DNA of 64,000 bases, from contig CAKOIF010000006.1 in the NCBI GenBank assembly GCA_934086485.1, positions 3,932 to 67,931 of the forward strand. The letters run 5' to 3'. The DNA is from an uncultured Bacilli bacterium. Lineage in GTDB: Bacteria > Bacillota_I > Bacilli_A > RF39 > UBA660. Positions 26,490 to 43,785 of this stretch are shown in pieces. The first letter of the stretch is position 1. Each line of letters opens with the position of its first letter. A program made the position numbers and the translations under genes. The notes under the pieces were generated by a model. It ran no database searches. It saw only the letters and a list, made by a program, of their open reading frames with translations, and had not been told where the DNA came from.

Positions 26490-26551
26490 AATACCCCCAG
26501 AAAGTAATAACTATTATAACATTATTTTAAAAAAAAGAAATAGATTTTGCT

Positions 26552-27691
26552 CTATTTCATCTTTCTATTAAAATCTTTTATTTCATCTTCATTATCAAGG
26601 TTACTATCTAAAAGTTCTTTGAATAATTTCTTTTGGGATAAAGTAAGTTTTGTAGGAATAATAATGTTTACTACAACATACATATTACCACGCATAATTG
26701 AGTTTGGACTTTTTAAACCTTTTCCTTTAAGTTTTAACTTTGTATAATTTTGAGTTCCAGGTTTTATTTCAAGAATAACATTTCCAGTAAGTGTTGGAAT
26801 TTCTTTTTCACAACCTAAAGTCGCCTCGGCAACATTAATTGGAAGTTCAAGATAAATATCATTTCCTTGTCTTTCAAAAAGAGGATGCTCTTTTATTTCA
26901 AAATCTACATAAAGATCGCCATTTTCACCATTTGAAGAGGCATTACCTTTACCAGCAAGTCTTAACTCGTGGCCAGAATCAACGCCTTCGGGTACTTTGA
27001 TTTTAATAGATTTTTTTTCATTAACAATACCAATTCCCTTACAATCAGGACAAATATTTTGATAAGTAACACCTTTACCCATACAATCTGGACATACTTT
27101 TTGAGTTTGCATCACCCCAAATATAGAACGAACCTGCTCTAAAACTACACCTCGGCCACCACATTTTGAACACGATTTTTCATTAAAACCGCCTTTACCA
27201 TCACAGGTTTTGCAAGGAGTTTTTAAATTTACCTCAATTGTTTTTTCACAACCAAATGCTGCCTCTTCGAAAGTAAGAGGAATAGTTACTTTTATATCAC
27301 TACCTCTTGAAGTTCTTTGTCTTCTTGCTCCTCCAAATGAGGAAAAACCACTTGTAAAGGATGAACCAAAATCATCATCCTCTCCAAAAACATGGCGAAG
27401 AATATCTCCTAAATCGATATCACTGGCATTAAAATTAAATCCGCCTTGACCACCAAAGTTACCTGTTCCATCAAATGCTGCAGAACCATACTGATCATAT
27501 GCTTTTCTTTTCTGTGGATCAGATAATATTGCATAAGCCTCTCCTATTTCTTTAAACTTTGCTTCATCACCCGTTTCTTTATTATCTGGATGATACATTT
27601 TAGCAAGTTTTCTAAAGGCTCTTTTAATTTCTTCGTCAGTGGCTGTTTTTGAAACACCTAAAAGTTCATAATAATCTTTTTTACTATTCAT
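26552..27691 (-). CDS. dnaJ: Chaperone DnaJ
   Basis: J domain YYELLGV...YHPD, a G/F region and four CxxCxGxG repeats. Confidence 0.95.
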   Translation of the reverse strand: MNSKKDYYELLGVSKTATDEEIKRAFRKLAKMYHPDNKETGDEAKFKEIGEAYAILSDPQKRKAYDQYGSAAFDGTGNFGGQGGFNFNASDIDLGDILRHVFGEDDDFGSSFTSGFSSFGGARRQRTSRGSDIKVTIPLTFEEAAFGCEKTIEVNLKTPCKTCDGKGGFNEKSCSKCGGRGVVLEQVRSIFGVMQTQKVCPDCMGKGVTYQNICPDCKGIGIVNEKKSIKIKVPEGVDSGHELRLAGKGNASSNGENGDLYVDFEIKEHPLFERQGNDIYLELPINVAEATLGCEKEIPTLTGNVILEIKPGTQNYTKLKLKGKGLKSPNSIMRGNMYVVVNIIIPTKLTLSQKKLFKELLDSNLDNEDEIKDFNRKMK

Positions 27692-29447
27692 AAAGACTTT
27701 CTAACTCCTTTCTTTTTTCATCAAAGAATTCAAATACTTCATCATAAAGTGATGGACTTTGTATATCTACGCCCGCTACTTTTAAACTTTTAACTGGTTC
27801 AAGTGTTGAACCAAGTTTTAAAAATTTAATATAACTTTCTAAAGCACCATCTTTTTTATTTATAATATCATTTGCTATTTTGAGTGCTGCAGCATAACCT
27901 GTAGCATATTGATAAACATAGAAATTATAATAAAAATGTGGAATTCTATAACATTCATATTTAATATCTTCATCAACTTCAACATTTGGTCCAAAATATA
28001 ATTTATTTAAATCTAAATATTCTTTTTGTACTAATTCTTTAGTAAGAACTGTTCCTTTCATTTCTTTGTTATGAAGATTATCTTCGAAATGTGCAAACAT
28101 AGTTTGCCTTATCATAGTTGCTTTAAATCTTTGTAATATACTATCTAATATATATTTTTTCTCTTCAATATTATCTGTATGATTTAACATATAATTTGTA
28201 AGAATTATTTCATTTACTTGACTTGCAACCTCCGCTACAAAGATGGAATAATTATAATCTTCATAAGTATTAAAGTTTTGAGCATAGTAATAATGCATTG
28301 CATGGCCTAGTTCGTGAATAAGAGTTGATACATCATCAAGTTTTCCTTCATAATTTATAACTACATAAGGATGAGCAAGATATGCACAAGTACAGTATCC
28401 ACCATCTCTTTTATTTTTCTTTGGATATACATCAATCCAATTATCTGAAAATGCTTTTTTAATTACCTCTACATAAGAATTTCCCATTACCTCTAAAGAA
28501 GATATTACAAGCTTTTTTGCTTCATCATATGTATATTTTTTATCAAAATCTTTTGTAATATTTGCATAAGTATCATATATATGAATTTTTTCTAAACCTA
28601 ATACTTTCTTTTTTAAGTCATAATATTTATAAAATTTAGGTAAATTATTTTTAATACCATTTATTAAATTATCATAAATATCATTTTTAATATCATTTGA
28701 ATATAAACTTAAACTTCTTGCGGAAGGAAATCCTCTTAATTTAGCAACTTTATTATTACTCATTACTTTTGTTGTATATATTGTATTAAAGGTATTTTCA
28801 TAATGTTTAATTTCTTTATAAATTTTTTCAAAAGCCTCTTTTCGAACGCTTTGTTTACTACTTTGTAAATATGTACTAAAGTTAGATATTGTAAGAGGTA
28901 CAACTTTACCTTCTTCATTAGTAATAGTGCCAAAGTCCATATCCGTTGTAAGAAGCATTTCACTTGCATCCTCACTTTTAGAGTACACAGATGTTAAAAG
29001 TGTAATAATTTTTTCTTCTTCTTTAGACTTAATATATTTTTTAGCTCTATAAATACTTTTTAAATTATTTTCATATTCCTTTAACTTTGGAAATTTTTTT
29101 ATATATTCTTTAACAAATTTAAAATCTTTTTCAAGTAGTTCTGGAACAACATAACTTTCTTTTTCTGATAATTCATTTAAGAAGTTAAGTACACTACCAA
29201 GCATTTCATTATAATTTTCATTTGTTAAATCTAAATCATTATTAATATGAGCATACAAATAAAGCCTTTCAAGTCTTTTTGAAATTTCATTATCATACTC
29301 CAAATATTCATATAACATTTCTGGACTAGATAATATTTTACCTTCATATTTAGAAATATTTTTAGCGTATTTTTTCAAAGATGCAAGCTCTTTTTTAGCA
29401 TCTTCATCACTTTTAAATAAAGCGCTTAAATCAATTTTTCCTTTCAT
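27684..29447 (-). CDS. pepF: Oligoendopeptidase F (M3B family)
   Basis: 587 aa with zinc motif HELGHAMH and an M3B-like overall layout. Confidence 0.85.
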   Translation of the reverse strand: MKGKIDLSALFKSDEDAKKELASLKKYAKNISKYEGKILSSPEMLYEYLEYDNEISKRLERLYLYAHINNDLDLTNENYNEMLGSVLNFLNELSEKESYVVPELLEKDFKFVKEYIKKFPKLKEYENNLKSIYRAKKYIKSKEEEKIITLLTSVYSKSEDASEMLLTTDMDFGTITNEEGKVVPLTISNFSTYLQSSKQSVRKEAFEKIYKEIKHYENTFNTIYTTKVMSNNKVAKLRGFPSARSLSLYSNDIKNDIYDNLINGIKNNLPKFYKYYDLKKKVLGLEKIHIYDTYANITKDFDKKYTYDEAKKLVISSLEVMGNSYVEVIKKAFSDNWIDVYPKKNKRDGGYCTCAYLAHPYVVINYEGKLDDVSTLIHELGHAMHYYYAQNFNTYEDYNYSIFVAEVASQVNEIILTNYMLNHTDNIEEKKYILDSILQRFKATMIRQTMFAHFEDNLHNKEMKGTVLTKELVQKEYLDLNKLYFGPNVEVDEDIKYECYRIPHFYYNFYVYQYATGYAAALKIANDIINKKDGALESYIKFLKLGSTLEPVKSLKVAGVDIQSPSLYDEVFEFFDEKRKELESLYE

Positions 29448-29463
29448 ATTTTATAACCAAATA

Positions 29464-29487
29464 TTAGGTCCTAGAAATAGGACCTAA
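29464..29487 (-). terminator. Stem-loop between dnaK and pepF (possible attenuator or terminator)
   Basis: 10-bp perfect stem TTAGGTCCTA/TAGGACCTAA with a 4-nt loop. The trailing U-tract on the minus strand is weak. Confidence 0.45.
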
Positions 29488-29505
29488 TACTCTACCTTTC
29501 TTTTA

Positions 29506-31323
29506 TTATTTTTCTTTATATTCAGCTTCCTGTGCATCGTCTGATGAATCATTTGAACTAGTTGTTTCAGTATTTTCAGCATTTGCTTTATTTGCCTCAT
29601 ATACTTTACCAGCAAGTTCCATAGCCTTTTTATTTAAACTTTCAGTCTTAGCTTTAATATCTTCGATGTCATTTCCCTTAAGGGCTTCCTCAAGGTCTTT
29701 AATTAATTTTTCAGCTTCTTCTTTATCTTTAGGATCAACTTTATCTTTTAAGTCCTCTAAAGCACGATTTGTTGCAAGAATCATTGAATCTGCTTCATTT
29801 CTTGCTTCACTTTCAGCCTTTTTCTTTTCATCAGCATCTTTATTAGCTTCAGCCTCTTTCATCATCTTATCAATTTCTTCATCTGAAAGATTTGTTGATG
29901 ATGTAATTGTAATTGATTGTTCTTTATTAGTTCCAAGATCTTTGGCAGTAACGTTTACTATACCATTAGCATCAATATCAAATTTAACCTCAATTTGTGG
30001 AACTCCTCTTCTTGCTGGAGGTATATTAGTAAGTTGGAAGTTTCCTAAAGTTTTATTATCTGATGCCATAGGTCTTTCACCTTGAAGTACGTGAATATCT
30101 ACAGCAGGTTGGTTATCTGCAGCAGTTGAGAATACTTGACTCTTACTTGTTGGAATAGTTGTATTTCTAGGAATAAGTACAGTCATAACATTTCCTAATG
30201 TTTCAATACCAAGTGATAGTGGAGTTACATCAAGTAGTACTACATCATTTACTTCACCAGTAAGTACGCCACCTTGAATAGCAGCACCCATTGCTACAAC
30301 TTCATCAGGGTTTACACTCTTATTTGGTTCTTGTCCAAGTTCTTTTTTAACAAGTTCTTGAATATAAGGAATTCTTGATGATCCTCCAACAAGGATTACT
30401 TTATTAATATCTTTTGCAGTAAGTCCAGCATCTTTTAAAGCTTTTCTAACTGGTTCAAGTGTAGAATCAAATAAATCTTTATTTAAATCTTCGAATTTTG
30501 CTTTTGATAAAGTAATGTCCATATGAAGTGGTTCTTTATTTTCATTTTGAGTTATAAATGGAAGTGAAATTTGTGTTGTAGTCATAGAGGATAAATCTTT
30601 TTTAGCTTTTTCAGCAGCATCTTTAACTCTTTGCATTGCCATAGCATCTTTTGATAAATCAATACCATGTTCTTTCTTAAATTCTGATACTAAATAATTA
30701 GCAACTCTTTCATCAAAGTCATCTCCACCTAAATGGTTATTACCTGCAGTAGATTTAACTTCGAAAACACCATCACCAAGTTCAAGAATTGAAACATCGA
30801 ATGTTCCTCCACCTAAGTCATATACTAAAATTGTTTGAAGAACATCTTGTTTATCAAGTCCATAAGCAAGAGCAGCAGCAGTTGGTTCATTAATAATTCT
30901 TTCAACATCAAGTCCTGCTATTTTACCAGCATTTTTAGTTGCTTGTCTTTGTGCATCATTAAAGTATGCAGGAACTGTAATAACAGCTTTAGTTACTTTA
31001 TCTCCTAAATAACTTTCTGCATCTTTTTTTAACTTAGAAAGAATCTTTGCACTGATTTCCTCTGGTGTATACATTCTTCCATTAGCCTCAACTTTTTCAT
31101 TTGTTCCCATTTTTCTTTTAATTGAGGAAATTGTATTTTTAACATTTGTTACTGCTTGTCTTTTTGCAGTTTCTCCAACTAGTTCATCGTCACCTTTAAA
31201 AGCAACTACTGAAGGAGTTGTACGGTTTCCTTCGGCATTAGGAATAACTTTTGCTTCCCCACCTTCAAGTACCGCTACACAACTATTTGTTGTACCTAAA
31301 TCTATACCAATAATTTTACTCAT
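29506..31323 (-). CDS. dnaK: Chaperone DnaK (Hsp70)
   Basis: 605 aa. [14 protein letters not shown] and the other Hsp70 signatures. Confidence 0.97.
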
Positions 31324-31343
31324 AATTTATCATTCCTTTCTTT

Positions 31344-31646
31344 TTATCGAGTAATTTTATTTTCATTATCTAATCTTGAATTAATTTCATTAACAATGTT
31401 AACTATTTCATCATTAATAATAATTTGTTCTTCACTAGATAAATTACTTAAAATTTTATTATAATTACTAGAAAACTCTTCATGCGAAGTAAGTCCTCTG
31501 GTAACTTTTAAAAGCTCCATTAATGAATCAAAATATGCTCTATCAAGTTCTTCAGATGTAAGTTTACTATGAATATCACTACTTTCTAAATGATACTCAC
31601 CAAAACTATTAAAAATTAATGACAAAGCTAGAAAATTATTATTCAT
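31344..31646 (-). CDS. Hypothetical 100-aa protein inserted between grpE and dnaK
   Basis: An ORF that overlaps the grpE stop by 8 nt. No recognisable motif. Confidence 0.4.
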   Translation of the reverse strand: MNNNFLALSLIFNSFGEYHLESSDIHSKLTSEELDRAYFDSLMELLKVTRGLTSHEEFSSNYNKILSNLSSEEQIIINDEIVNIVNEINSRLDNENKITR

Positions 31647-32205
31647 TAACTTTTACCATAGCTACTCTTATAACTTTATCATTATAAGTATAGCCTTTTT
31701 GCATTACTTCCACAACTACGCCTTCCTCTTCTTCCATAATACTGGTAGTCATAATTGCTTCCATAGTTTTTGGATCAAACTGTTTACCCATTGCTTCTAT
31801 CTCTTTAACACCAATTGCATTTAAAGTAGATAAAAGTGATGTATATATCATTTTAAATCCAGATAAGAATTTTGAAAGTTCATCAGTTAAGTTATCATCA
31901 TCAAGAGATATTGCTCTTTCAAAATTATCAATAATTGGTAAAATCTCTTTAATAAGTTTTTCACCATCATATTTATAAATATTAGCTTTTTCTTCATTAA
32001 AGCGTCTATTCATATTTTGCATTTCAGCATTTAATCTTAATATTTTATCTGAAAGTGCATTTTTTTCTTCAATTAATTTTTTATTTTCTTCAGCAAACTT
32101 TTTAATTTCTTCCATACATTTTTCATGATGATTATTTTTTTTATCTTTCTTAATTTCTTTTTCATTTACTGAAACTTTTTCTTCTTTTTTAATATCTTCT
32201 TTCAA
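31639..32205 (-). CDS. grpE: Nucleotide exchange factor GrpE
   Basis: 188 aa with a coiled-coil N-terminus and a GrpE-like C-terminus (MQKGYTYNDKVIRVAMVKV). Position between hrcA and dnaK. Confidence 0.9.
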   Translation of the reverse strand: MKEDIKKEEKVSVNEKEIKKDKKNNHHEKCMEEIKKFAEENKKLIEEKNALSDKILRLNAEMQNMNRRFNEEKANIYKYDGEKLIKEILPIIDNFERAISLDDDNLTDELSKFLSGFKMIYTSLLSTLNAIGVKEIEAMGKQFDPKTMEAIMTTSIMEEEEGVVVEVMQKGYTYNDKVIRVAMVKVNE

Positions 32206-32213
32206 GTTATCAC

Positions 32214-33212
32214 CTACTTTTTCTTCATTTGTTCTAGGACATAATCAAGTAGTCCATATACTTTAGCATAATCCATTCTTTTTGGGCCTATTATTGCAAT
32301 AGAACCTTTTTCTCCATTAATATCATAAGTCCTTTTTACAATAGTTGTATTATCATCGACTTGTGATTCATCACCTATATAAACCTTTATTTCATCACTA
32401 CCATCAATACTTGTAACTTTTTTGATAAATGATTCATCCTCAAGTTTATATGCAAGTTTTTTAATTGATTCTGGATTATCATACTCAGGCTGCTCTAATA
32501 CTTTAGCTTTTCCATTTACAGTAACATTTGCATTTTCATCAACAAAATCTGTAAAAGCATTATAAAATATATTATATACTTTTTCATAATTACTTATTTC
32601 CTGTGCAATAATTGGTTTTATTTCAAACTCTAAACGCTCTGAAACATCTTTAATTGGTGTTCCAATAAGCATCTTATTAATTATTTCACTAGTTTTAATA
32701 AGTTCTTTAACATTTGTACCCTCCGGTAAAATAAATTTTTTATTTTCTACAAGTCCTGTATTTGTACATACTAAAGCAACAATTTTATTTTCATCTATTG
32801 GAATAATACTTACTTGTTTAAGCAAATTATCCATGCTACTACTTCCTAAAACTATTGAAGCATAATTTGTTAAATCACTAATTATCTCCATACACTTAGT
32901 TATTGCATCAGATAATACTAAATCTTGATTTTTAACTACTCTCTGAAGTTTTAACATTTCGCTACCATTAAGTTTTTCAGGTTCCATTAAGTTTTCAACA
33001 TAATATCTATAACCTTTTTCTGAGGGTATTCTTCCAGAGGATATATGATTTTTTTCAATATAACCTAAATCCTCTAAAGTAGCCATCTCATTTCTTATTG
33101 TGGCACTTGATAAATTAAACTTTTCACAAAGTGACTTACTTCCAACAGGTTTAACGGACTTTACATAAGTCTCTACTATTACTTTTAGTAACTGTTTTTG
33201 ACGATTATCCAT
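32214..33212 (-). CDS. hrcA: Heat-inducible transcription repressor HrcA
   Basis: N-terminal winged helix RQKQLLKVIVETYVKSVKPVGSKSL, 332 aa, with CIRCE sites upstream. Confidence 0.93.
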   Translation of the reverse strand: MDNRQKQLLKVIVETYVKSVKPVGSKSLCEKFNLSSATIRNEMATLEDLGYIEKNHISSGRIPSEKGYRYYVENLMEPEKLNGSEMLKLQRVVKNQDLVLSDAITKCMEIISDLTNYASIVLGSSSMDNLLKQVSIIPIDENKIVALVCTNTGLVENKKFILPEGTNVKELIKTSEIINKMLIGTPIKDVSERLEFEIKPIIAQEISNYEKVYNIFYNAFTDFVDENANVTVNGKAKVLEQPEYDNPESIKKLAYKLEDESFIKKVTSIDGSDEIKVYIGDESQVDDNTTIVKRTYDINGEKGSIAIIGPKRMDYAKVYGLLDYVLEQMKKK

Positions 33213-33222
33213 AATGTCCTTT

Positions 33223-33249
33223 CTAGCACTTTCTTAACCAAAATGCTAA
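33223..33249. promoter_or_regulatory. CIRCE-like operator 1
   Basis: The minus strand reads TTAGCATTT-N9-AAGTGCTAG, against the consensus TTAGCACTC-N9-GAGTGCTAA. It lies 11 nt upstream of the hrcA ATG. Confidence 0.7.
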
Positions 33250-33268
33250 CATTATTATATTATGCAAA

Positions 33269-33295
33269 TTAGCACTTGTCAATACCTTTTGCTAA
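33269..33295. promoter_or_regulatory. CIRCE-like operator 2
   Basis: TTAGCACTT-N9-TTTTGCTAA (plus strand). It has 9-9-9 spacing but a weaker inverted symmetry. Confidence 0.5.
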
Positions 33296-33319
33296 ATATT
33301 TTTTATAAAAAAATTAATG

Positions 33320-34984
33320 TTATTTTCCTAACACTAATTTTTCTTCTGTAGTTAAGAATTCATTTACTTTAACAGCACTTTTTTGTAAAAAATCTAAAAA
33401 GTCATTAATACTAATACTTGCTTTGAAAGTAACCTCACCCTCATAAAAATCAGTAAACTCTATTAAAGAATCTTTTAAAGTTTCTTTTTGAATAACTTTA
33501 TAGTTTCCATGAGCAATACTATTTCTAATACCATTAATTATTTTTTCATTTTTAATTAATTTTGAATAAGTATTTACATAACTATTTACATTATTTATAG
33601 TAGACTGAATATTTATTAAATCATTATTATATCCACTAAGGTTTACATTAATTATATTTATTTGATTAGTTATTTTATTTATAGCATCAAGTTTTCCCAG
33701 TGAAGTTACTTTTGCTAAACTATTATTACAACTAACTAAAGCATTATTTAATTTATTTATATTATTTTTAATAGCATTTTCTTTTACACCTAAATCAGTA
33801 ATATATCCATCATCTGTTTTTTCCACTTCAACATTAAATGAACTTGTATCTATAAGTGAATAATCAAAACCATCTAAGTCTAAATTTTGATATTCATTTT
33901 TATTATGTAAGACATCATCATAACCATATGCAAATAAAGCATTAAACGAGGATATTAAACTTTGGGCTAAGTCATCAGTGGCTATATAAAGTTTACCATA
34001 TTTTCTTATTATATCATCATGAACTTTTTCATAATTAGATGTTCCTAATTCTTTTATTGAATTAAGAAGTAATAGATTATGAACACCAGAGACAATCATA
34101 CTAAAATTATCAAATTTATCTTTATTAAATAATTTATCAACTTCATATCCTACAATTTCAATAACTCTTTCATATGGCGTATTTGGAGTTGTACTATTAT
34201 AAAGGAAATTTGCTAATACATTTGTATCTTCATTTTTAGTACTAACTTTATTCCAAGAAACCACATAATCCTCTTTAACTTTTCTTTCAAAATTCATAAG
34301 TTCATTTAAATTTAAAGATTTAGAAAACGATGTAACAGTTTCATTAAATTTATCAAATATATATCCCTCAATTGGACTTCCGTCTTTTCTTTTAATTGTA
34401 ATATTATATTTATAATACATAGAAATCATATTTTTATATTCATTTAATGAATATCTTTCTTTATCTTTACCAACCCTGCTTTTAGTGTATACAAAACATC
34501 TTGTAAAAGATGAAGTATTATAATTTTGTAATGTTGAGGAAAATGATGATATAACAAAATTTGTAAGTTTTGGTATCGGAATAACTATATCATTACCTGA
34601 TACTTTTAATATAACTCTGTTATGAGCAAAATCTATCAAATACTCGCCATGACCTAGTTTATTTCTAATCGTAGTAACTAAAGTATAGCTATCTTTAAAA
34701 GTATAACCATTTATTTCATAACCATCTATTGTTTTATTAGCAATTAAATTTACATTTTTTTCCATTAATGAAAAAGGAAGTAAAATATTATTATTTTTAT
34801 CAACCATTTTTTCTTTAATAGCTAAAAATATACTTGAAACATTTCCCATAATAGCTCCATTTAAGTATTCCTTATTAGAAATATATTCACTATAAATAGG
34901 ATTACCAAATATCATCCCCATTAAAAATAAATCATATGCATAATTTCCTGAAAAATATTTTATTATAGTTTCTTCTTTATTCAT
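33320..34984 (-). CDS. Uncharacterised 554-aa protein with two HEPN-type RNxxxHG motifs
   Basis: TTIRNKLGHGEY (R107/H112; nt 34649-34666) and NGIRNSIAHGNY (R487/H492; nt 33509-33526). An Asn-rich coiled-coil-like segment lies between them. No signal peptide or TM segment. Confidence 0.55.
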   Translation of the reverse strand: MNKEETIIKYFSGNYAYDLFLMGMIFGNPIYSEYISNKEYLNGAIMGNVSSIFLAIKEKMVDKNNNILLPFSLMEKNVNLIANKTIDGYEINGYTFKDSYTLVTTIRNKLGHGEYLIDFAHNRVILKVSGNDIVIPIPKLTNFVISSFSSTLQNYNTSSFTRCFVYTKSRVGKDKERYSLNEYKNMISMYYKYNITIKRKDGSPIEGYIFDKFNETVTSFSKSLNLNELMNFERKVKEDYVVSWNKVSTKNEDTNVLANFLYNSTTPNTPYERVIEIVGYEVDKLFNKDKFDNFSMIVSGVHNLLLLNSIKELGTSNYEKVHDDIIRKYGKLYIATDDLAQSLISSFNALFAYGYDDVLHNKNEYQNLDLDGFDYSLIDTSSFNVEVEKTDDGYITDLGVKENAIKNNINKLNNALVSCNNSLAKVTSLGKLDAINKITNQINIINVNLSGYNNDLINIQSTINNVNSYVNTYSKLIKNEKIINGIRNSIAHGNYKVIQKETLKDSLIEFTDFYEGEVTFKASISINDFLDFLQKSAVKVNEFLTTEEKLVLGK

Positions 34985-36069
34985 TTTTTCACCATTATCA
35001 AAGGTACATACATTTCATCTTCTGTAAAACCAGCGTGATTAGATTTAAATATATGTCCTCCCCTTTTATACTTAAATATTTTATCACTTTTTGCAAGAGC
35101 AATAAAGTCCCCAATAGAATCTTCAAAGTATTTGTTTTCATTATTTAGGCCAAATAATTTAGACTCTATAGTTTCATTTTTATTCATTAATTTAAAATAT
35201 GCTGAAAAGTATTTATTAAATAATTTTTTAAATAAAGTTTTATCAGTTACATTAAAACTGCAGCATCTTCCCTCAAGCCAAACATTATCTATAATTAAAT
35301 CAAATAAATCAGGATAATCGCATAAATAAATATATTCACTATCAATATGACCATGATCTGCTGTAATAATTAATAAAGTGTTATTTAAATTTTTTGCAAA
35401 CTTTTCACATTTATCATTAATCATTTTCAAAATAGATAATACTTCTTTACTATCATTACCTTTTACATGCAAAGTGCTATCTGGATCCATATAATAGGCA
35501 TAAATATAATTTTTTTCTTTTATATTTAAATTGGATTTTATCATAGATAGCATTTCATCAATATCTTTATATGTTTCTTCATATTTAATTGGAAACACAA
35601 TTTTTGAATGATATTTACCATTTTCTAGAATTCTATCAGTAATCGTTTTATAAGGGAAATATTTTTCTGCAATATTAAACGGATATTCTTCATCACTATC
35701 TTTATATTTATTGGTAAACATTGTTACAAAAGCATTTTCTTTTTTATAATACATATCCCATCCTAAATAACCATGCGTGCAAGGATATTTTCCTGTCATA
35801 ATCGAAGTTGTAGCGCTAGTGGTGGTCGAAGGACAAGTCGAGGTAACTTTTTTAACTATATTATTTACTAAAAATGTATTAGGTATTTTTTTATTTATTA
35901 AATTATAACCCATTCCATCAAATAAAATAACCACTACATTTTTAGGCTTAAAAGAATTTAATACTTCATCAATTTCCCCGAGTGAGAAAACATTGCTTGC
36001 TAAATCAAAATATTTTTCAATACTACCTGCAATATTAACAACACTATTTTTATAATCTGGATAAATCAT
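34981..36069 (-). CDS. Alkaline-phosphatase-superfamily enzyme (nucleotide pyrophosphatase/phosphodiesterase- or PglZ-like)
   Basis: VVVILFDGMGYN (metal Asp), PSTTTSATTSIMTG (nucleophile Thr/Ser), DPDSTLH and ITADHGH motifs. 362 aa, no signal peptide. Confidence 0.7.
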   Translation of the reverse strand: MIYPDYKNSVVNIAGSIEKYFDLASNVFSLGEIDEVLNSFKPKNVVVILFDGMGYNLINKKIPNTFLVNNIVKKVTSTCPSTTTSATTSIMTGKYPCTHGYLGWDMYYKKENAFVTMFTNKYKDSDEEYPFNIAEKYFPYKTITDRILENGKYHSKIVFPIKYEETYKDIDEMLSMIKSNLNIKEKNYIYAYYMDPDSTLHVKGNDSKEVLSILKMINDKCEKFAKNLNNTLLIITADHGHIDSEYIYLCDYPDLFDLIIDNVWLEGRCCSFNVTDKTLFKKLFNKYFSAYFKLMNKNETIESKLFGLNNENKYFEDSIGDFIALAKSDKIFKYKRGGHIFKSNHAGFTEDEMYVPLIMVKK

Positions 36070-36491
36070 AAATGCCTCGAATATTTAATTTTTTCTATAA
36101 CTTTCTTAATCATTATAAATCCTGGAATATAAAATGTCAGTGAAAATATAAGCATTACAATACTTCCATCATTCCAATTTTTTATAATTATATAATTAAA
36201 ATATAATAAAAAGCTAAACCACATAATTATAAAAACAATATAGTATATATTACTAAATAAATGAAGCATTTTATTACCAGCATCTTCATTATACAATTTT
36301 ACAATTTGACAAGCATTCGAATAAATTCCTAGTAACATTCCAATTGAAAATAATAATATTATTATTTTATTAAATCCTCCATTCGAAGGTATACTTTTTA
36401 TTAAAAATAGCCATATAAAAAACATTATTATAATTGCTATACCATAAGTAATCGTATACAAAGTTTTTGAAATTTTATCAATTTTTTTCAT
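36066..36491 (-). CDS. Small 4-TM membrane protein (paralog of the upstream gene)
   Basis: 141 aa with four hydrophobic segments. Shares NWN(D/N)...FLYxPGxxM...KIKY with 36488..36955. Confidence 0.6.
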   Translation of the reverse strand: MKKIDKISKTLYTITYGIAIIIMFFIWLFLIKSIPSNGGFNKIIILLFSIGMLLGIYSNACQIVKLYNEDAGNKMLHLFSNIYYIVFIIMWFSFLLYFNYIIIKNWNDGSIVMLIFSLTFYIPGFIMIKKVIEKIKYSRHL

Positions 36492-36955
36492 ATAATATAC
36501 CCATATTTAATTTTTCTATAAGTTGCAAGACTCATAAGAAGGCCTGGTAAATATAAAAATAAAGTACAAAGAAATTCCTTTAAGTTTGAATTATTCCAAT
36601 TATTTATTAACGTATAATCATAGAAAATTAAGCTGCCAAACCAAAATATAAGAAAAGTTAAATAAATAATTATACTTACTATATTCAATATTTTTTCATC
36701 CTTTTTCTTAGTGTAAAAATCTAGCACTATAAAAATAAACACCAATGATGAAAGTATAAAAATACCGCCAATAAGAATTAATAATAATTTGATAATTCCC
36801 GTATAATCTTTAGTAAGGTGAAACATTAATTTGCTGCACATTGCCATTAAAAAACTCATAAAAATTGAAATTGTACTTAAGATTTTCTTCATATTTTTGT
36901 CTTTTGTTAAAGCTTTTTCTAATCTTTTTATCATTTTTTCTAATTTTTCTTCCAT
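36488..36955 (-). CDS. Small 4-TM membrane protein with a short amphipathic N-terminus
   Basis: The likely start MEEKLEK at 36955 lies 4 nt after GGTAGGAGG; the track start at 36988 is probably upstream read-in. ATGA overlap with the next gene. Confidence 0.6.
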   Translation of the reverse strand: MEEKLEKMIKRLEKALTKDKNMKKILSTISIFMSFLMAMCSKLMFHLTKDYTGIIKLLLILIGGIFILSSLVFIFIVLDFYTKKKDEKILNIVSIIIYLTFLIFWFGSLIFYDYTLINNWNNSNLKEFLCTLFLYLPGLLMSLATYRKIKYGYII

Positions 36956-37000
36956 AAAACCTCCTACCCTATAATTTAATAATAACACATATTGTTAATT

Positions 37001-37029
37001 AAAAAAAGGATGAAAATAAAATTTCATCA
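37001..37029 (-). terminator. Rho-independent terminator after surface-protein gene 37030..38580
   Basis: Stem GATGAAA/TTTCATC followed on the minus strand by CTTTTTTT. It separates that gene from the four-gene cassette. Confidence 0.65.
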
Positions 37030-38580
37030 CTAACTTGCTGTGTAAACATCATTATATGTACCACTGCCTGATAACTTTGCTTTAGATGATAGAGAAACGA
37101 CAGGGCGAGCGCCATATGCACCAGTCACAGTAGCGTAGTCCAAATCACCCGATGAAGAAACAAGGAACCCAAAAGCACCATAAATACTGGAAATAGCAGG
37201 CGACCCCGACCAATAATTTTGGTTTGTATACAAATAATATGAACTGTTGCTTGTATTATATACTCCTCCTGCCATTGCTACTTCATCCGCTGTTATTAAT
37301 CCTACTGGGTAGGTTAATGCCTTATTTCCTATACTACTTCCTTTTGATGTAAATTTATCACTTTCTGTTGGACAAGTTAATATTGGTTTTTTATTACTAT
37401 TTAATCTTACATTTGCTCCATAGAAATATGTTGTGCTAGTACTCATACTTCCACTTATTTCTCCTGGGGTTCCACTACTACTTGTTGTTGCACTTCGATC
37501 GTTACAAAATATTTGATCCGCCACTAAACTTTTTGTCGTTGCATCTATTTCCAATGTTGTTGTTTTATACCAATTATCTATTGCTGTTTTTATTGTACTT
37601 GCGGTGCTAGTTCCGTGTTGTGCACTTGCTGTATACATATAACCTACATACTCTGCTTTATTATAACTACTATTAAAGGTATAAGTTGTCGCATTTATTT
37701 GTGTTCCTGTTCCTGTCATTACTGTCGCTGTACTACTTGTTGGAGCCGTTGTACCAGAGTATATCATCCTTATACTTCCATCGCCATTAATTCTGATTAT
37801 TCTCCAGTACATATCTTTATCTCCTTCTTTTCCAAATTTTACCCAGTTATTATTTACTGCCCCCCTAAAGTAATATGACTTCATTCCAGTTGATGCAGTA
37901 TAATCATCATCAGCTTTATATAATCCTTTTTCACTTGCTGTTGTTACTTTACTAAAATCTGGAGTCGTTTCATTTACTGTATTATTTGCTAAAATTGTTT
38001 CCCATCCTTTTTTCTCTAAATCTATTACATCAGAAACCACTTTATTTCCTGCACTATCTTTAATCCATAAATAATACGTTCCTTCTGTTGTTATTGTAGT
38101 ACTTAAATTATAAGATATTCCACTTATTGAGGTCCAACTTGTTGGTTCAGTGCTGTTACTTGTACTTATTCCATAGCCAGATAGTTCTATATTATCAGTA
38201 AGTATTGCAGTTATTGTTGTGTCATTTATAATTAGATTGGATATAACTGGCTTTTCTGTATCAATTATCTTATCAAAATATAGTGAACACCTATCACTAC
38301 CGATAAAAGAGAAACTTACTGTACCTGAAGTACTATCATAGTTTAATACTTTACCATTATTTTCACAAATAGTCTTTTCTTCATTTAAAACATAATTACC
38401 TTTAGGTATTGCATCTGAACTTATATATTCTCCTGATTCACCTTTTACCATTATTGCTAAATTATTTTTCTTCGGTATGTATTTATTTTTAGGTTTATTA
38501 TATATTTTATTTACAAATAAAATACCTCCAATTAAAATTACTAATGATGTTAAAATTATAATTACCTTTTTATTTTTCAT
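37030..38580 (-). CDS. Membrane-anchored surface protein, hypervariable-C-terminus family (member 1)
   Basis: N-terminal signal anchor. Modules are shared with 47392 (KTICENNGKV...GSDRCS) and 61689 (EKPVISNL...GTYYLWIKDSAGNK). C-terminus NYWSGSPA...[variable]...GARPVVSL. Confidence 0.7.
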   Translation of the reverse strand: MKNKKVIIILTSLVILIGGILFVNKIYNKPKNKYIPKKNNLAIMVKGESGEYISSDAIPKGNYVLNEEKTICENNGKVLNYDSTSGTVSFSFIGSDRCSLYFDKIIDTEKPVISNLIINDTTITAILTDNIELSGYGISTSNSTEPTSWTSISGISYNLSTTITTEGTYYLWIKDSAGNKVVSDVIDLEKKGWETILANNTVNETTPDFSKVTTASEKGLYKADDDYTASTGMKSYYFRGAVNNNWVKFGKEGDKDMYWRIIRINGDGSIRMIYSGTTAPTSSTATVMTGTGTQINATTYTFNSSYNKAEYVGYMYTASAQHGTSTASTIKTAIDNWYKTTTLEIDATTKSLVADQIFCNDRSATTSSSGTPGEISGSMSTSTTYFYGANVRLNSNKKPILTCPTESDKFTSKGSSIGNKALTYPVGLITADEVAMAGGVYNTSNSSYYLYTNQNYWSGSPAISSIYGAFGFLVSSSGDLDYATVTGAYGARPVVSLSSKAKLSGSGTYNDVYTAS

Positions 38581-38800
38581 AACCTACTCCAATTCCGCTT
38601 AAATACTGGAGTACATTTTCCTAGATTATAATCATTTAGGAAAATTGCATCTCAATTTTATGGGAAAAGGACTAGAAATCTAATCAAAAAAATGCTAAAA
38701 TTAGGATAGAAATAGCATAAATACTAGGATTGATTTTCCTATATGATTATACTTTATGAAAGACTATTCCTTATAAACACTGGGTTTGTGAGACTTTTAA
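38581..38800 (-). promoter_or_regulatory. Conserved upstream module L1 of the surface-protein family
   Basis: Shares ordered blocks with 48712-48905 and 63530-63735: ACAAAC-N5-GTTTAT, TTTC(A/G)TAAAGTATAA, GAAAAT-N6-CCNAGTATTTA (twice), CCTTTTCCC(A/G)TAAAAT and TTCCTAAATGNTTATAAT. Confidence 0.6.
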
Positions 38801-38845
38801 ATACTTTTTTTAATACTTAAATTTCATTAAAAAAATGGAGCTTTT

Positions 38846-40351
38846 CTACTCCACAGTTTTAGTAATGATATTAATTTTATCATTTAGTTTTTTATTTTCC
38901 TCTTTTAAAGAATTATTTTCTTCTTTTAAAGTATTATAATTATCTAAAAGTTCATTATACTTATCGGTGATTTCATCATATTTTTCATTAATATCATCAA
39001 TAATATCAGTTTGATTTTTAATATTTTCATATTCTTTTTCAATATTATTTTTTAAAATATTAATATTTTTTTCATTAGCATAAATTTTAATTATACTATT
39101 ATCTCTAAAGTTATAATTATACACTTTATTATGCTTTAAATTATCGACTAAATCATCAAATATATTTTTAGCATTTACTCCATATTGATGTAAAATAATT
39201 CTATAAACGTAAGCATTTTCTTCAGTATGTGATGTAACAAAATCTGGGTATGTTTCTACTTCAATTTTAATATTATCTAAAGTATTATCAATTACAAATT
39301 CATAATGAGTATTTGTATCAATTAAAAGATTATCTTGCATCTTTACATTAAACTCACTTTTTGTAGTTTTAAACTTTGGAGAAATGCTATTTACATAGTT
39401 AATTTTAGATACCTCAATTGAAAATAATCCAGAACCTATTCCAAATATGGAAAGTGATGCAATTAAAGTAATAAGCATTCTTTTGAAAGGCACTTTCTTA
39501 CTAAATAATAAGTCAAATAAAAATTCTATAGTTAAAATATTTAAGAAAATAGTTGATAATGAAATAAGAATTAAGCCAATGTATGTAAGTCCATTAAAGG
39601 CAAAATATAGTATTATAATAAGTCCTATAAAAAATATAATTAAGGTAACTAGAAATGGAAATGTAAAGCAAGCTATAAAAAATTTAACAAAAACAATTAA
39701 AATATTAGAAAATAAATTAATAAATGAATAATTTTTATTTTCATTTCTATCTTTTTCTTTAATAGGTTTACTTTCCTTTACCTCTTTTGCAAATTTTAAA
39801 TCATTATCTTTTTTTAAATCCATTTTGTCTAAAAAACCTATTTTAAATATATATATCATTACTATAATAAATAAAGCAACATAAGCAAAGTCAAATATAA
39901 ATTCAAAGAAATTTGCCACAAAAATTGTAAAATCATTTTGACTAACGCTTGTTATTAAATTAGTTACTTTATCACTTAATAAGTTAACTGGTAACTTTAA
40001 TATTAATAATGCTAAAAAAGTAAACATCATAACTAAAAAACATTTTGTATTATCAAGAAGTGTATTATTAACAATAAAGTTATAAGTATTTTTTACAAAA
40101 CTAAAGAAACTATCAATTACATTTTTATCTTTATTTTCAGTATTATTAATATCTACCTCATCATTTGTAAGACTATCTAAAGAAACATTAAATATTTTAC
40201 ATATAGCAAGTAGCTTGTCCATTTCTGGGTATGTTTGCCCACTTTCCCATTTTGATACAGATTGTCTTGATACATCAAGTGATGCTGCCAAGTCTTCTTG
40301 ACTCATCTTATTTTCTTTTCTAAGTTTTACTAACTTTTCACTAAAATTCAT
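38846..40351 (-). CDS. Membrane-bound XRE-family HTH regulator with a C-terminal coiled coil
   Basis: N-terminal HTH_3 KLRKENKMSQEDLAASLDVSRQSVSKWESGQTYP, several TM helices, an extracytoplasmic domain, and a heptad-rich tail. Confidence 0.75.
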   Translation of the reverse strand: MNFSEKLVKLRKENKMSQEDLAASLDVSRQSVSKWESGQTYPEMDKLLAICKIFNVSLDSLTNDEVDINNTENKDKNVIDSFFSFVKNTYNFIVNNTLLDNTKCFLVMMFTFLALLILKLPVNLLSDKVTNLITSVSQNDFTIFVANFFEFIFDFAYVALFIIVMIYIFKIGFLDKMDLKKDNDLKFAKEVKESKPIKEKDRNENKNYSFINLFSNILIVFVKFFIACFTFPFLVTLIIFFIGLIIILYFAFNGLTYIGLILISLSTIFLNILTIEFLFDLLFSKKVPFKRMLITLIASLSIFGIGSGLFSIEVSKINYVNSISPKFKTTKSEFNVKMQDNLLIDTNTHYEFVIDNTLDNIKIEVETYPDFVTSHTEENAYVYRIILHQYGVNAKNIFDDLVDNLKHNKVYNYNFRDNSIIKIYANEKNINILKNNIEKEYENIKNQTDIIDDINEKYDEITDKYNELLDNYNTLKEENNSLKEENKKLNDKINIITKTVE

Positions 40352-40384
40352 AATCTTTCCTTCTTTCTAAAAAGATTTTATCAT

Positions 40385-40439
40385 GTAACTCAGTTGCGGA
40401 AAACCAATTTTAGGTTGTTTTTTGTAACTTTTTAGTTGC
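40385..40439. promoter_or_regulatory. Two GTAACT-N-AGTTGC near-palindromes upstream of the XRE-TM gene
   Basis: GTAACTcAGTTGC (40385-40397) and GTAACTttttAGTTGC (40424-40439), in the 89-nt gap before the ATG at 40351. Candidate autoregulatory operators. Confidence 0.35.
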
Positions 40440-40440
40440 A

Positions 40441-42600
40441 TTATCTATAATATGCTTCCTCTTTTACATGTCCATCCTTATCAAAATAGCTTGCATACTC
40501 TTTTTCTAAACTTAAATATTCATTATATTCATTTATAGCTCTAGGATCATTTCCAACAATGCATGAAATAATACTATAATCATCATTAATTAAAATGAAA
40601 AAGTCTTTATTATATATTATCTTTAAAGCATGCGATAAATCTAAAATTCCTAATGCTTTTTCATAATATATTTTATTTATATTTGTTATGTCTTCTTTGG
40701 TAATATACTCTTTTTCTATTTCTTTAGTTTCCATTCTTGGATCTAAATATCTAACAGTGGCTTCAAAACTTGAGGTAGTATAAAGTGATGTATCATCTTT
40801 TTTAGTAATTATATAGTTTGCATAATCATATCCACCCATATTAGCGTACATATCTGGTGTTTCATTTAATGGCCTTAAATTTTCATAACTAATAAGATCT
40901 TTAGGCATCATTTCAAAACCACCAATTCTTTCAATTTGATTTTTATAATTACCCATAAGTACTAAAGAAATGCTTTCTTCTTTACTTTCATTTACCGAAG
41001 AAATTTCAATCATTTTTTCAAAAGCAGTTTTTCCCACATTAAATATATTTCTCATATAATCAATATTTTTTACACTTATAGATTCAATTGAGTTACATAA
41101 AAGTACATTACCGTTTCTTACAAAAGGAATCATTGCACATACATTACCATTACTATCTTTTATAACTAAAACTCTTCCGTTAACATTTTCAGCGCAGTAC
41201 CTAACAAAAGAGTCTGCTTCCCCACCTATTTTAAAACAACAATTAGTTTTTGAACCCATTACAAATAAGTTAGGATCATCACAAGTAAGTGTTTCATAAT
41301 AATAACCATTTTGAGTTCCACTTACATAAGGGATAGTTTTTTGATAGTTATGGCGCACCTTTCTATATTCCTCACTTACATTTTGAATAATTTTATTATC
41401 ATCAGAAAATGATTGAAACTGTTTATTATCAACACATTCATTAATAATACTTCCCTCAAGTGGTGCTAAATCTGGATCAAGAGGTCTTAATATACCATTT
41501 TTAAGTAAATCTTTATAAAAATCTATTTTATTATAAATATGTTGTGTTTTAAATCTTTTTTCATATTCACTAAAGCCTGCATAAATAACACCAATATTTT
41601 GAGATATTTCATAATCGTTATTAAGAATACTTTTTAATAAACCATTAGGGCTAAAAAAGAAATTAATAAACTGTTCATCGTAAATAATTTTACCAGAATT
41701 TAAATGAATTTTTTGTAAATCTATTAAATATAAACTACTAAATACTTTTCTAAATTTATTTTCATCTTTATTTAACATATTAATTAACTTTTCAGAGTTT
41801 TGATAACCTAAGACCGCAATTAAATTTATAGCAAAACGCATTTGTCTATCATAATTATAATGTTTAAAATCTTCGAAATCATTTTGAACTACAGTAATTA
41901 AATTTTTAACTTGTTTAGGTTTAATATCAAGAAGTACCTCTAAAGAGTTATTATCAAAATTATTTAATTTATCTTTATATTTTCCTTCGACTAAAATTCT
42001 TTTATAAGAACTATAATTATACCCTATGATATCAATAAGATTTATATCACCACTTAATAAATAACCAATAATTTCATTTATTTTAGAATCTATATTTTCT
42101 AAATTAGAATTTTCCTTAAGAATATTAGATTTTAAATAATCATTTAAAGTAGATAAAACATTATCATTAAGTTTACCAGTTTGAATGTAATCTTTTTTCA
42201 TTTGTAAAAAAGTATTAATAAATTTTATATCTTTAATATCTTTATAATCTATATCTATATTATTAATCAATCCCTTATTAAAAAGTATTTCATATTCATT
42301 AAATATTACATTATAATCAAATCTTTTATCATCAAAACTATTTCCATTAATATCATTTATATTTGACATATCAAAAAATAAAGGTAAAGTTTTAGCAATA
42401 GTAATAAGCATTTTTTTATAATATTTATCGTAATCATACATATAAATATACATAAAAAGTTTACTTGCATTATCAAAAGAAATAGAACATAAATTTATTA
42501 ATTCTTCCTCAGTAAAGTCACGAAATCCATCTTCATTTAAAAACATTGTATTATTTATTTTAATATTTGGATGAGCATTAATAAACTGTTCTTTTGTCAT
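40441..42600 (-). CDS. Hypothetical 719-aa cytoplasmic protein, no recognised domain
   Basis: Long uninterrupted ORF with a GGAGG-like RBS (cggaggtaaaaATG). No TM segment or signal. Contains a Cys-containing segment TNCCFKIGGEADSFVRYCAENVNGR. Confidence 0.6.
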   Translation of the reverse strand: MTKEQFINAHPNIKINNTMFLNEDGFRDFTEEELINLCSISFDNASKLFMYIYMYDYDKYYKKMLITIAKTLPLFFDMSNINDINGNSFDDKRFDYNVIFNEYEILFNKGLINNIDIDYKDIKDIKFINTFLQMKKDYIQTGKLNDNVLSTLNDYLKSNILKENSNLENIDSKINEIIGYLLSGDINLIDIIGYNYSSYKRILVEGKYKDKLNNFDNNSLEVLLDIKPKQVKNLITVVQNDFEDFKHYNYDRQMRFAINLIAVLGYQNSEKLINMLNKDENKFRKVFSSLYLIDLQKIHLNSGKIIYDEQFINFFFSPNGLLKSILNNDYEISQNIGVIYAGFSEYEKRFKTQHIYNKIDFYKDLLKNGILRPLDPDLAPLEGSIINECVDNKQFQSFSDDNKIIQNVSEEYRKVRHNYQKTIPYVSGTQNGYYYETLTCDDPNLFVMGSKTNCCFKIGGEADSFVRYCAENVNGRVLVIKDSNGNVCAMIPFVRNGNVLLCNSIESISVKNIDYMRNIFNVGKTAFEKMIEISSVNESKEESISLVLMGNYKNQIERIGGFEMMPKDLISYENLRPLNETPDMYANMGGYDYANYIITKKDDTSLYTTSSFEATVRYLDPRMETKEIEKEYITKEDITNINKIYYEKALGILDLSHALKIIYNKDFFILINDDYSIISCIVGNDPRAINEYNEYLSLEKEYASYFDKDGHVKEEAYYR

Positions 42601-42818
42601 TTTTACCTCCGATTAATTTATATTTTTAAGACAGTATTTGCATGATATTTATATAATATGAGCATTTTATATCATCGATTGATTTTACACCTAATATTAC
42701 AACATTTTATGAACTTAGATTATTATTTTCTTTTTCATAAAATTCACACCTATTTATAGTATATATTTTTTTATAAACATTGTATATCATTTAACACACA
42801 CTTTACATTTTGATTTAC

Positions 42819-42856
42819 ACTATACAATTTTCAGGACTTTTACTATACAATTTTCA
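42819..42856. repeat. Direct repeat ACTATACAATTTTCA x2 (23-nt period) in the promoter region of the 719-aa gene
   Basis: Exact 15-nt copies at 42819-42833 and 42842-42856, between the small XRE gene and the 719-aa gene. Confidence 0.6.
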
Positions 42857-42884
42857 AAAAATAAAAATAGGACACTAAGTCCTA
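42855..42884 (-). terminator. Terminator of the small XRE gene
   Basis: Stem TAGGAC/GTCCTA (42868-73 / 42879-84) followed on the minus strand by TTTTTATTTTTT. It overlaps the stop codon. Confidence 0.55.
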
Positions 42885-43451
42885 CTCTATTGTAGTATTG
42901 CATGAACCATTATGATCTTTGAAGTAATCCTCAATATGCGCAAGCATTACATTAACATCATCATATTTTATAACATCAACATGATTAGCAATAAATGAAT
43001 CTCCACCCAAATTTATTACTTGATAATTTTTATTATATTCAATTTCATAAACATACTGTTCATTATCTAACATGCATTCAATTCTTGATTTACCTACAAT
43101 TTCTCTACCAGTGCTTCTTGCCCTAAATAAGATAAAAAGTAAAAATAGAAAAAGAGTAAACACAGCAATTCCTATACCAAATATTTTTAATAGTTTAATG
43201 ATAATACCCGCTAAACGTTCTGTATTGCTAACCTTTTGCACTAAAACATTATTAATATCATTTGAGGTAAGTTCATCTAAACTTATATTAAATATCTTTG
43301 ATAAAGTTTTTGCTTGCATAATATCAGGTGATGTTTCTCCAAGTTCCCACTTTGATATTGTTTGTCTTGTTACGCCAACTCTTTCAGCTAAATCTTCTTG
43401 TGAAAAATTATTTTGTTTTCTTAAATTTGCAATTTTTTCTCCTAAATCCAT
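42882..43451 (-). CDS. Membrane-anchored XRE-family HTH regulator (189 aa)
   Basis: HTH_3 NLRKQNNFSQEDLAERVGVTRQTISKWELGETSP, a single TM helix and a ~70-aa C-terminal domain. Confidence 0.8.
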   Translation of the reverse strand: MDLGEKIANLRKQNNFSQEDLAERVGVTRQTISKWELGETSPDIMQAKTLSKIFNISLDELTSNDINNVLVQKVSNTERLAGIIIKLLKIFGIGIAVFTLFLFLLFILFRARSTGREIVGKSRIECMLDNEQYVYEIEYNKNYQVINLGGDSFIANHVDVIKYDDVNVMLAHIEDYFKDHNGSCNTTIE

Positions 43452-43540
43452 AATATTCTCCTTTCATAAAAAAATTCTATCATTTTAAATACATTATCTC
43501 TACCAATATTTAATGGAACTTACGCAATTTTTATTAACAT

Positions 43541-43750: not shown

Positions 43751-43785
43751 AAGTTCATTATCAAACCATATTTTTTTATAAATTT

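Follow-up and report, generated by a model that had tools for sequence, protein, structure and literature searches.

We describe a run of four genes on the minus strand of a 64,000-nucleotide stretch of DNA from an uncultured RF39-type Bacilli bacterium (assembly GCA_934086485.1, contig CAKOIF010000006.1, positions 3,932 to 67,931; hereafter the window, in which all positions below are counted). RF39-type bacteria are common, uncultured organisms of the human gut with reduced genomes. An initial annotation, made from the letters of the DNA, had read the run as a candidate membrane-associated defence or stress module comprising two small membrane proteins, an alkaline-phosphatase-fold enzyme, and, as its effector, a 554-amino-acid (aa) protein with two HEPN motifs. 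The analysis reported here centers on this 554-aa protein and on its relation to the other three.

Results

The listing of open reading frames (ORFs) and the sequence itself both bear out the four-gene run (Table 1), whose members are coupled throughout by 4-nt ATGA overlaps (36488-91, 36066-69, and 34981-84). The first gene starts at an ATG at 36955, and its mechanical ORF reaches further, to a GTG at 36988. The strong ribosome-binding site and the preceding terminator proposed in the initial annotation were also recovered: GGTAGGAGG lies five nt before the ATG, and a plausible hairpin (GAUGAAA-N6-UUUCAUC) followed by a run of seven U separates the cassette from an upstream surface-protein gene, with a folding energy of -8.2 kcal/mol (z = -2.9). 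This hairpin was not called by a consensus terminator scanner, which requires at least three G-C pairs where the hairpin has two. At its other end the cassette stops short of hrcA, which is preceded by a perfect TTGACA-17-TATAAT promoter (33282..33254) and by two CIRCE-like inverted repeats of the form TTAGCA-N15-TGCTA (33224-33249 and 33269-33295); no others occur in the window, in which 0.06 would be expected. These repeats are degenerate, as no match to the canonical CIRCE 27-mer was found within three mismatches and only a relaxed inverted repeat is present. No Rfam RNA family was found anywhere in the window. Counted from the ORF coordinates, 4-nt overlaps occur at six gene junctions across the window, three of them within the cassette. 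Because they are found at other junctions too, the ATGA coupling is evidence for an operon and for nothing beyond it, a caution that had been voiced at the outset.

Table 1. Features of the four-gene run and its boundaries, in window coordinates.
Feature	Position	Strand	Basis
Intrinsic terminator (probable) of the surface-protein gene upstream; operon's 5' boundary	37001..37029	-	Hairpin and U-run
Shine-Dalgarno sequence GGTAGGAGG of the first gene (TM paralogue A)	36960..36968	-	Read from the sequence, five nt before ATG 36955
Transmembrane (TM) paralogue A, small membrane protein of 155 aa with a charged N-terminal helix	36488..36955	-	3-4 TM segments by hydropathy
TM paralogue B, small membrane protein of 141 aa	36066..36491	-	4 predicted TM segments
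NPP-type (alkaline-phosphatase superfamily) phosphodiesterase/pyrophosphatase, 362 aa	34981..36069	-	PF01663
Single-chain dual-HEPN protein, 554 aa (whole gene including stop codon)	33320..34984	-	Family, AF2 model
N-terminal HEPN-like unit, residues 1-155	34520..34984	-	Motif R107-N-K-L-G-H112-G at 34649-34666
Central alpha/beta region, residues 156-389	33818..34519	-	Confidently modelled; no recognisable family
C-terminal HEPN unit, residues 390-554	33323..33817	-	Motif R487-N-S-I-A-H492-G at 33509-33526
hrcA sigma-70-type promoter and two CIRCE-like operators; 3' boundary of the operon, outside the cassette	33224..33295	-	Promoter and inverted-repeat scans

The 554-aa product of the fourth gene belongs to a well-defined family that forms 205 clusters at 50% identity; almost all members are about 550 aa long and align over their whole length, and identity between genera is 25-35%. 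HEPN proteins are marked by a conserved Rx4-6H motif in which a polar residue (N, D, or H) follows the R, and both R-N-x3-H motifs of the 554-aa protein have this form. The two motifs noticed initially (R107-H112 and R487-H492) are strongly retained in this family. In an alignment of 91 of its sequences R107 is invariant, and N108, H112, G113, R487, N488, H492, and G493 are each at least 90% conserved, as are K57 and E58 in helix 2 of the N-terminal unit; of 74 full-length genomic copies, 72 have both RNxxxHG motifs. Comparison of the two units by hhalign showed them to be homologous (Prob 95.2%, E = 2.8e-8), and the C-terminal unit aligned with pEK499_p136 (PF18736), represented by 87 sequences gathered from the founding protein of plasmid pEK499 (Prob 94.7%, E = 6e-8) in such a way that the RNS[IV]AH block and the next strand are in register. 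Direct matches to PF18736 at E < 0.01 were obtained with 6 of 80 family members (best E = 7.9e-6), and precomputed PF18736 matches are graded weak.

An AlphaFold2 (AF2) model of the 554-aa protein was obtained with a pLDDT of 92.2 and a pTM of 0.90 (pLDDT 94 for a model of the C-terminal domain), and this pTM indicates that the modelled single-chain arrangement is confidently packed. The HEPN fold has been described as an up-down core of four helices, namely a helical hairpin, a third helix with the motif at its end or at the start of the loop that follows, an insert, and a fourth helix, with inserts tolerated (PMC3710099). In the model, the N-terminal unit consists of a hairpin (H3-26/H38-60), a helix ending in the motif (H99-111), a beta insert, and a last helix (H137-152); the C-terminal unit consists of a coiled-coil hairpin (H393-429/H432-472), a helix ending in the motif (H474-491), a beta meander, and a last helix (H526-553). 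Both units agree with the published four-helix description, in topology only.

Several results weigh against the HEPN assignment. The N-terminal unit matches pEK499_p136 weakly when compared directly (E = 0.0025, Prob 12%) and is linked to it only through the C-terminal unit, and the 554-aa protein, whole or in halves, has no PF18736 match at E ≤ 10 (the gathering threshold is 26.6 bits). A Foldseek search of the full model found nothing at E ≤ 0.001 in PDB or BFVD, with coiled-coil and helical-hairpin matches dominating, and searches of PDB with the full model and with the C-terminal domain gave no match at E < 0.06 and retrieved no solved HEPN structure. The classification therefore rests on profile-profile comparison and topology, since the Foldseek route returned no HEPN structure; the pEK499_p136 clade itself appears to be without a solved structure. 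Searches of Pfam, NCBIfam, PADLOC, PHROGs, and PDB sequences with the 554-aa protein all stayed below threshold, the profile of the dual-HEPN family found no HEPN match among PDB sequences, and PADLOC gave only weak matches across the family, most of them with models that include a HEPN domain (RTasHEPN in 7 members, CARF_HEPN in 5). Taken together, the sequence comparisons and the topology lead us to classify the 554-aa protein as a genuine two-HEPN protein of an undescribed family, a distant relative of pEK499_p136 and not a member of PF18736. The literature and libraries searched yielded neither a name for this family nor a paper or curated model describing it. Its central region (residues 156-389) has no match in Pfam, PDB, or BFVD, is poorly conserved in sequence except for F347 and Y353, and is a candidate regulatory or sensor module.

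The 362-aa product of the third gene (hereafter NPP) matches PF01663 (Phosphodiest) over residues 45-339 at 76.8 bits (E = 3.1e-21; cut-off 23), in accordance with its annotation as an alkaline-phosphatase-fold enzyme. This fold is common to NPP/ENPP enzymes and to PglZ of BREX/Pgl systems. When the 362-aa protein is aligned to ENPP1 and ENPP5, its DPDSxxH and DHG motifs and Thr-rich nucleophile segment are all in register with the metal-binding DxDxxxH and DHG motifs and the Thr nucleophile segment of the ENPPs. In contrast to the ENPPs, it shows neither a signal peptide nor a TM segment when the sequence is read; hydropathy likewise predicts no TM segment, and the enzyme is probably cytoplasmic. 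Orthologues in other Bacilli share 43-54% identity with it and are annotated as "alkaline phosphatase family protein". The analogy to PglZ and BREX drawn initially did not survive, as PF08665 scored 22.8 bits against a cut-off of 25 and covered residues 182-243 only, TIGR02687 scored 13.2 bits against 270, and the gene lies among TM proteins, the HEPN gene, and hrcA without BREX/Pgl partner genes beside it.

The first two genes encode related proteins (33% identity over 75 aa, E = 6e-15), as expected of the pair of 4-TM paralogues originally proposed. Neither has a match above threshold in Pfam, PADLOC, or NCBIfam. For paralogue A the NCBIfam scores were 21.9 bits for MAG0110 (cut-off 98) and 15.3 bits for SLATT_1 (cut-off 41), and a SLATT identity was rejected on the latter score. 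No PADLOC model matched NPP or paralogue B, and paralogue A gave one weak match (SP_VI, E = 0.0072); the view that the four genes together form no named system is upheld by the lack of an assignment in PADLOC, NCBIfam, PHROGs, and Pfam. Between strains, paralogue A is 72% identical with a ratio of nonsynonymous to synonymous divergence (dN/dS) of 0.20, and paralogue B is 57-58% identical with a dN/dS of 0.4. The small TM genes fall into three paralogue types (about 155, 140, and 143 aa) and are the most diverged genes of the locus, with 57-72% amino-acid identity as compared to 100% for GrpE. Their number varies within the species, with two in the window and three in L006, L007, L085, and others (L numbers denote loci of the sample described below); L008 has one, and L005 has one plus a 68-aa fragment.

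Scanning one genome from each GTDB species with a pattern yielded 72 loci with the dual-HEPN gene, almost all from gut metagenome-assembled genomes (MAGs) and labelled Mycoplasma sp. CAG:472, uncultured Tenericutes, or Bacilli; the first two labels we take to belong to the GTDB order RF39. Neighbourhoods of the 72 loci were compared by tblastn and by all-against-all clustering of every ORF within 8 kb. The TM-TM-NPP-HEPN block was limited to the genus-level clade of the window (L001-L008), where it stands each time before hrcA, and in about 60 of the 72 species loci the HEPN gene was solitary, with no TM or NPP partner within 8 kb. No neighbour cluster recurred across the 72 loci and no antitoxin-like gene adjoined the HEPN gene; a HEPN-MNT (type VII) or other two-gene toxin-antitoxin arrangement was rejected for want of a recurring small partner gene. 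The neighbours include RecG, PFOR, UvrC, RpoD, alanine racemase, a P-type ATPase, HSP20, RelA/SpoT, an S41 peptidase, and chaperones. The neighbourhoods of the HEPN gene are variable and mostly housekeeping, and are not defence islands, the exceptions being a Dam-type methyltransferase upstream in three related species and amidoligase genes in a few. Within genera its synteny is kept, and it is usually present as one copy per genome in the same orientation as the flanking core genes. Tandem duplicates, 26-36% identical, were seen in four loci (L021, L048, L053, and L054), and in L048 the second copy is cut short to 441 aa and has no second motif. Conversely, none of seven neighbourhoods of NPP orthologues in other Bacilli holds a dual-HEPN gene; several of the seven contain tRNA synthetases, a RelA/SpoT-type gene, a CCA-adding enzyme, or ABC transporters.

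Within the species, the assembly collection lists 3779 blocks with the GrpE sequence of the window, for which 10 distinct strain contexts were returned. In all 10 the NPP and HEPN genes lie before hrcA together with two or three TM paralogues. The presence of the HEPN gene in these 10 contexts and in L001-L007 counts against a defence role. The NPP and HEPN genes look fixed in the species, while the TM genes and the upstream DNA vary. Compared with other strains, the heat-shock operon is 97-99% identical at the DNA level, the NPP and HEPN genes are 88-95% identical, and the TM genes 70-84%, and synteny is lost upstream. Purifying selection acts on each of the four genes (dN/dS 0.15-0.40). Synonymous divergence (dS) of the NPP and HEPN genes (0.25-0.36) is like that of dnaJ (0.30), and they therefore share a common history with the chromosome, so that a horizontal origin, which the divergence of the cassette might have suggested, was rejected for these two genes; the TM genes, with a dS of about 0.7, look like older alleles. 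A mobile defence system or defence island was likewise rejected, given that 10 of 10 strain contexts carry the gene and that its neighbours are mostly housekeeping. The idea of a self-contained insertion is only partly right, as the block sits beside hrcA in every strain context examined for the species and its close relatives and it is the DNA upstream of the TM genes that varies.

Upstream of the TM genes (37030-42600, as compared with L001 and L084-L093) the DNA is strain-variable, with a P-type ATPase in most strains and, in the window, genes for a 516-aa surface protein, a 501-aa XRE helix-turn-helix (HTH) membrane protein, and a 719-aa unknown protein. Many public contigs, about 6.2 kb long, seem to begin some 130 bp before the first TM gene (directly so in L003 and L004), as they would if assembly broke off at a polymorphic junction. 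On the other side of the block, L008 (UBA6448) has two genes of 304 and 494 aa without a Pfam match inserted between the HEPN gene and hrcA (6440-8842).

Some further neighbours of the HEPN gene were noted among the other loci. Homologues of the surface protein (27-39% identity) are encoded upstream of it, directly so in L023, L024, and L076 and at a distance of a few genes in L005, L009, and the window; L023 keeps the window's order of XRE-TM gene, surface protein, and HEPN gene, with the TM and NPP genes missing. Because this family of surface proteins has several copies, among them partial paralogues at 48391-48705 and 62585-62899 of the window, this adjacency may be due to chance. In the L041 group (L041, L044-L046, L061, and L065) a 281-aa XRE-HTH 4-TM protein is encoded immediately upstream. 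In six species (L015, at 7265-8005, and L021, L022, L032, L036, and L051) the gene directly upstream encodes a 247-aa protein (cluster C22) with no Pfam match, which overlaps the HEPN start in three and which, by eye, has a glycine-rich loop and D..N/D.D motifs, giving it a putative likeness to small protein kinases. HSP20 lies one or two genes upstream in four loci (L019, L021, L022, and L040), and RelA/SpoT lies downstream in L009 and probably in L024 (same cluster). The presence of stress genes near the HEPN gene (HSP20, RelA/SpoT, and, in the window's clade, hrcA-grpE-dnaK) could be a coincidence in small genomes. Short contigs with the HEPN gene have also been binned in Bacteroidales MAGs (Muribaculaceae and Paludibacteraceae; L020, L029, L034, and L066), probably reflecting mis-binning and not a presence outside Bacilli.

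Discussion

The four genes form a real local operon and not a conserved multi-gene system. We consider it rather probable, taking both parts together, that the operon is specific to its lineage and that the HEPN protein acts as an RNase on its own. Autonomy is argued for because the HEPN gene is solitary in most of the loci sampled and because NPP orthologues elsewhere occur without it. The operon would then have been assembled from three unrelated parts: one to three fast-evolving 4-TM proteins, an NPP of a kind conserved in related Bacilli, of which this would be the local copy, and the dual-HEPN protein, with which the TM and NPP genes would merely share a transcript in the window's lineage. 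In the 554-aa protein itself, the two HEPN domains, of the pEK499_p136 type, may pair within one chain to build a single composite, metal-independent RNase site, as HEPN homodimers and Cas13 do, and the roughly 230-aa central domain and the coiled-coil hairpin would gate this site so that RNA is cleaved only on a signal. The family is apparently confined to small-genome gut Bacilli. We tentatively go one step further and raise the possibility, for which the chances are still somewhat short of even, that it represents a new class of CRISPR-independent, single-chain dual-HEPN RNases with an intramolecular composite site and a central sensor gate, acting as one-gene systems triggered by infection or stress and kept vertically across an entire uncultured order of human-gut Bacilli.

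The nearest relatives by profile are the pEK499_p136 proteins (PF18736; prototype WP_000528932.1 of Escherichia coli plasmid pEK499), in which the series "I..hRNS[IV]AH", beta strand, "I.F.D", and last helix is the same as in the C-terminal unit. These are single-domain proteins of about 160 aa from Proteobacteria and Bacteroidota that occur on plasmids and in restriction-modification (R-M), Pgl, and toxin contexts, whereas the 554-aa protein has two units, a 230-aa central domain, and an 80-residue coiled-coil hairpin. The pEK499_p136 family has been reported beside R-M, Pgl, and toxin genes (PMC3710099).

In architecture the closest parallel is Cas13 of type VI CRISPR systems, which likewise carries a pair of HEPN domains, each with an R-N-x3-H motif, on a single polypeptide. 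The two HEPN domains of Cas13 build one composite RNase site, as do HEPN homodimers; the 554-aa protein is shorter than the known Cas13 proteins. No CRISPR repeat array was found in window positions 26000-46000 (within 10 kb), and no sequence match to Cas13 chains was found in PDB at E ≤ 10. With no array, no similarity, and no conserved neighbours, a Cas13-like reading was rejected, and the likeness is one of architecture only.

Functionally, the HEPN abortive infection (Abi) proteins and toxins AbiD/AbiF (Abi_2), AbiU2, AbiV, AbiJ, and RnlA/LsoA offer a comparison, being stand-alone or nearly stand-alone RNase toxins with R-N-x3-H-type motifs and fast evolution, in which extra N-terminal or central domains are thought to sense infection (PMC3710099). 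The 554-aa protein has no match to their Pfam or PADLOC models, and its gene differs from theirs in being chromosomal, present in every strain context examined, and outside mobile or defence-island contexts. Among eukaryotic proteins Swt1 carries a HEPN dyad in one chain (PMC3710099), as the 554-aa protein does, but with a PIN partner domain, and Las1, according to a preprint (bioRxiv 10.1101/760058), exemplifies a HEPN RNase that can be housekeeping and needs two motifs to cut. Swt1 and Las1 act in RNA surveillance and rRNA processing, respectively, and have no detectable sequence relation to the 554-aa protein.

As to the role of such an RNase, we regard an Abi- or toxin-like one, triggered by stress or infection, as somewhat more likely than a housekeeping one. 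Identity between genera is lower for the HEPN protein than for the NPP orthologues (not necessarily of the same genomes), which hints at conflict, as do the diverged tandem duplicates and the defence and plasmid ties of the nearest HEPN relatives. Genus-level synteny, housekeeping neighbours, and the absence of an adjacent antitoxin-like partner speak against a defence role. These last features are what would be expected if RF39-type Bacilli used the protein as a lineage-specific housekeeping endoribonuclease, for the processing or degradation of RNA; Las1 provides a eukaryotic example of a housekeeping HEPN enzyme. Presence in all strain contexts of the species, a usually single copy in core-gene orientation, neighbours such as RecG, UvrC, RpoD, RelA/SpoT, hrcA, and HSP20, purifying selection (dN/dS 0.15-0.26), and the lack of an antitoxin or immunity partner are all compatible with such an enzyme. 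However, an identity of 25-35% between genera is very low for a core enzyme, tandem duplicates have diverged and in one case lost the second motif, the family was found only in one group of gut Bacilli, and its nearest HEPN relatives are plasmid- or defence-associated, so we hold the housekeeping explanation to be unlikely, albeit the strongest of the alternatives.

The reading of all four genes as one membrane-associated defence or stress system, in which the TM proteins sense or anchor, the NPP produces or breaks down a nucleotide signal or trims RNA ends, and the HEPN protein serves as effector, is more doubtful still. In its favor, three consecutive ATGA overlaps within a single ribosome-binding site and terminator frame imply translational coupling, a point against mere juxtaposition, and the block is kept in all examined strains of the species and in its close relatives; the pEK499_p136 family, moreover, is occasionally tied to Pgl components in the literature. 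Also awkward for an autonomous HEPN gene is that an NPP (67% identity) lies near it in a second lineage (L010, L011, and L016), although there a lipoprotein-like gene separates the two; in L010 the NPP is about 0.8 kb upstream and is preceded by an unrelated 4-TM gene. In L009 a TM gene of the C1 family lies directly upstream of the HEPN gene (HMM E = 5.7e-9), with no NPP. Yet the partners are missing within 8 kb in about 60 of 72 loci and no HEPN gene accompanies the NPP in the seven outside neighbourhoods, TM copies range from one to three with fragments while NPP and HEPN stay intact, and the NPP falls under the PglZ thresholds and, like paralogue B, is matched by no PADLOC model. The initial annotation had named a lack of co-occurrence elsewhere and housekeeping contexts of homologues as findings that would speak against its four-gene module, and both were observed; the proposal is accordingly not supported, and a HEPN protein acting on its own is preferred.

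That the RNxxxHG motifs are non-catalytic, the protein serving as a scaffold (structural or coiled-coil) or as a HEPN protein that binds nucleotides but is no nuclease, is very improbable: Foldseek's failure to retrieve a solved HEPN, the long coiled-coil hairpin, and the existence of purely ligand-binding HEPN domains (PMC3710099) would suit it, but R, N, and H are retained in both units across about 200 clusters, and inactive HEPN families typically lose R or H (PMC3710099).

To our knowledge, Cas13 alone among well-studied bacterial RNases builds its HEPN site from two domains of one chain. The 554-aa protein, a dual-HEPN protein with no evidence of a guide RNA and with an unmatched modelled fold, would thus be a new scaffold for gating of a HEPN site, a candidate for comparison with proposed ancestors of Cas13, and possibly a one-gene immune or stress effector in RF39-type bacteria. 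A more general lesson is that tight ATGA coupling in one genome did not foretell a conserved functional module.

Two minor observations concern the heat-shock operon that follows the cassette. Between grpE and dnaK lies a 100-aa ORF (31344-31646) that overlaps grpE by 8 nt and belongs to no family; it is kept in all close relatives and shows relaxed constraint (dN/dS 0.4-1.0 or more). Between dnaK and dnaJ lies a gene for an M3 oligopeptidase (PepF; 27684-29447), with an 8-nt overlap with dnaJ, and this position within a heat-shock operon looks unusual.

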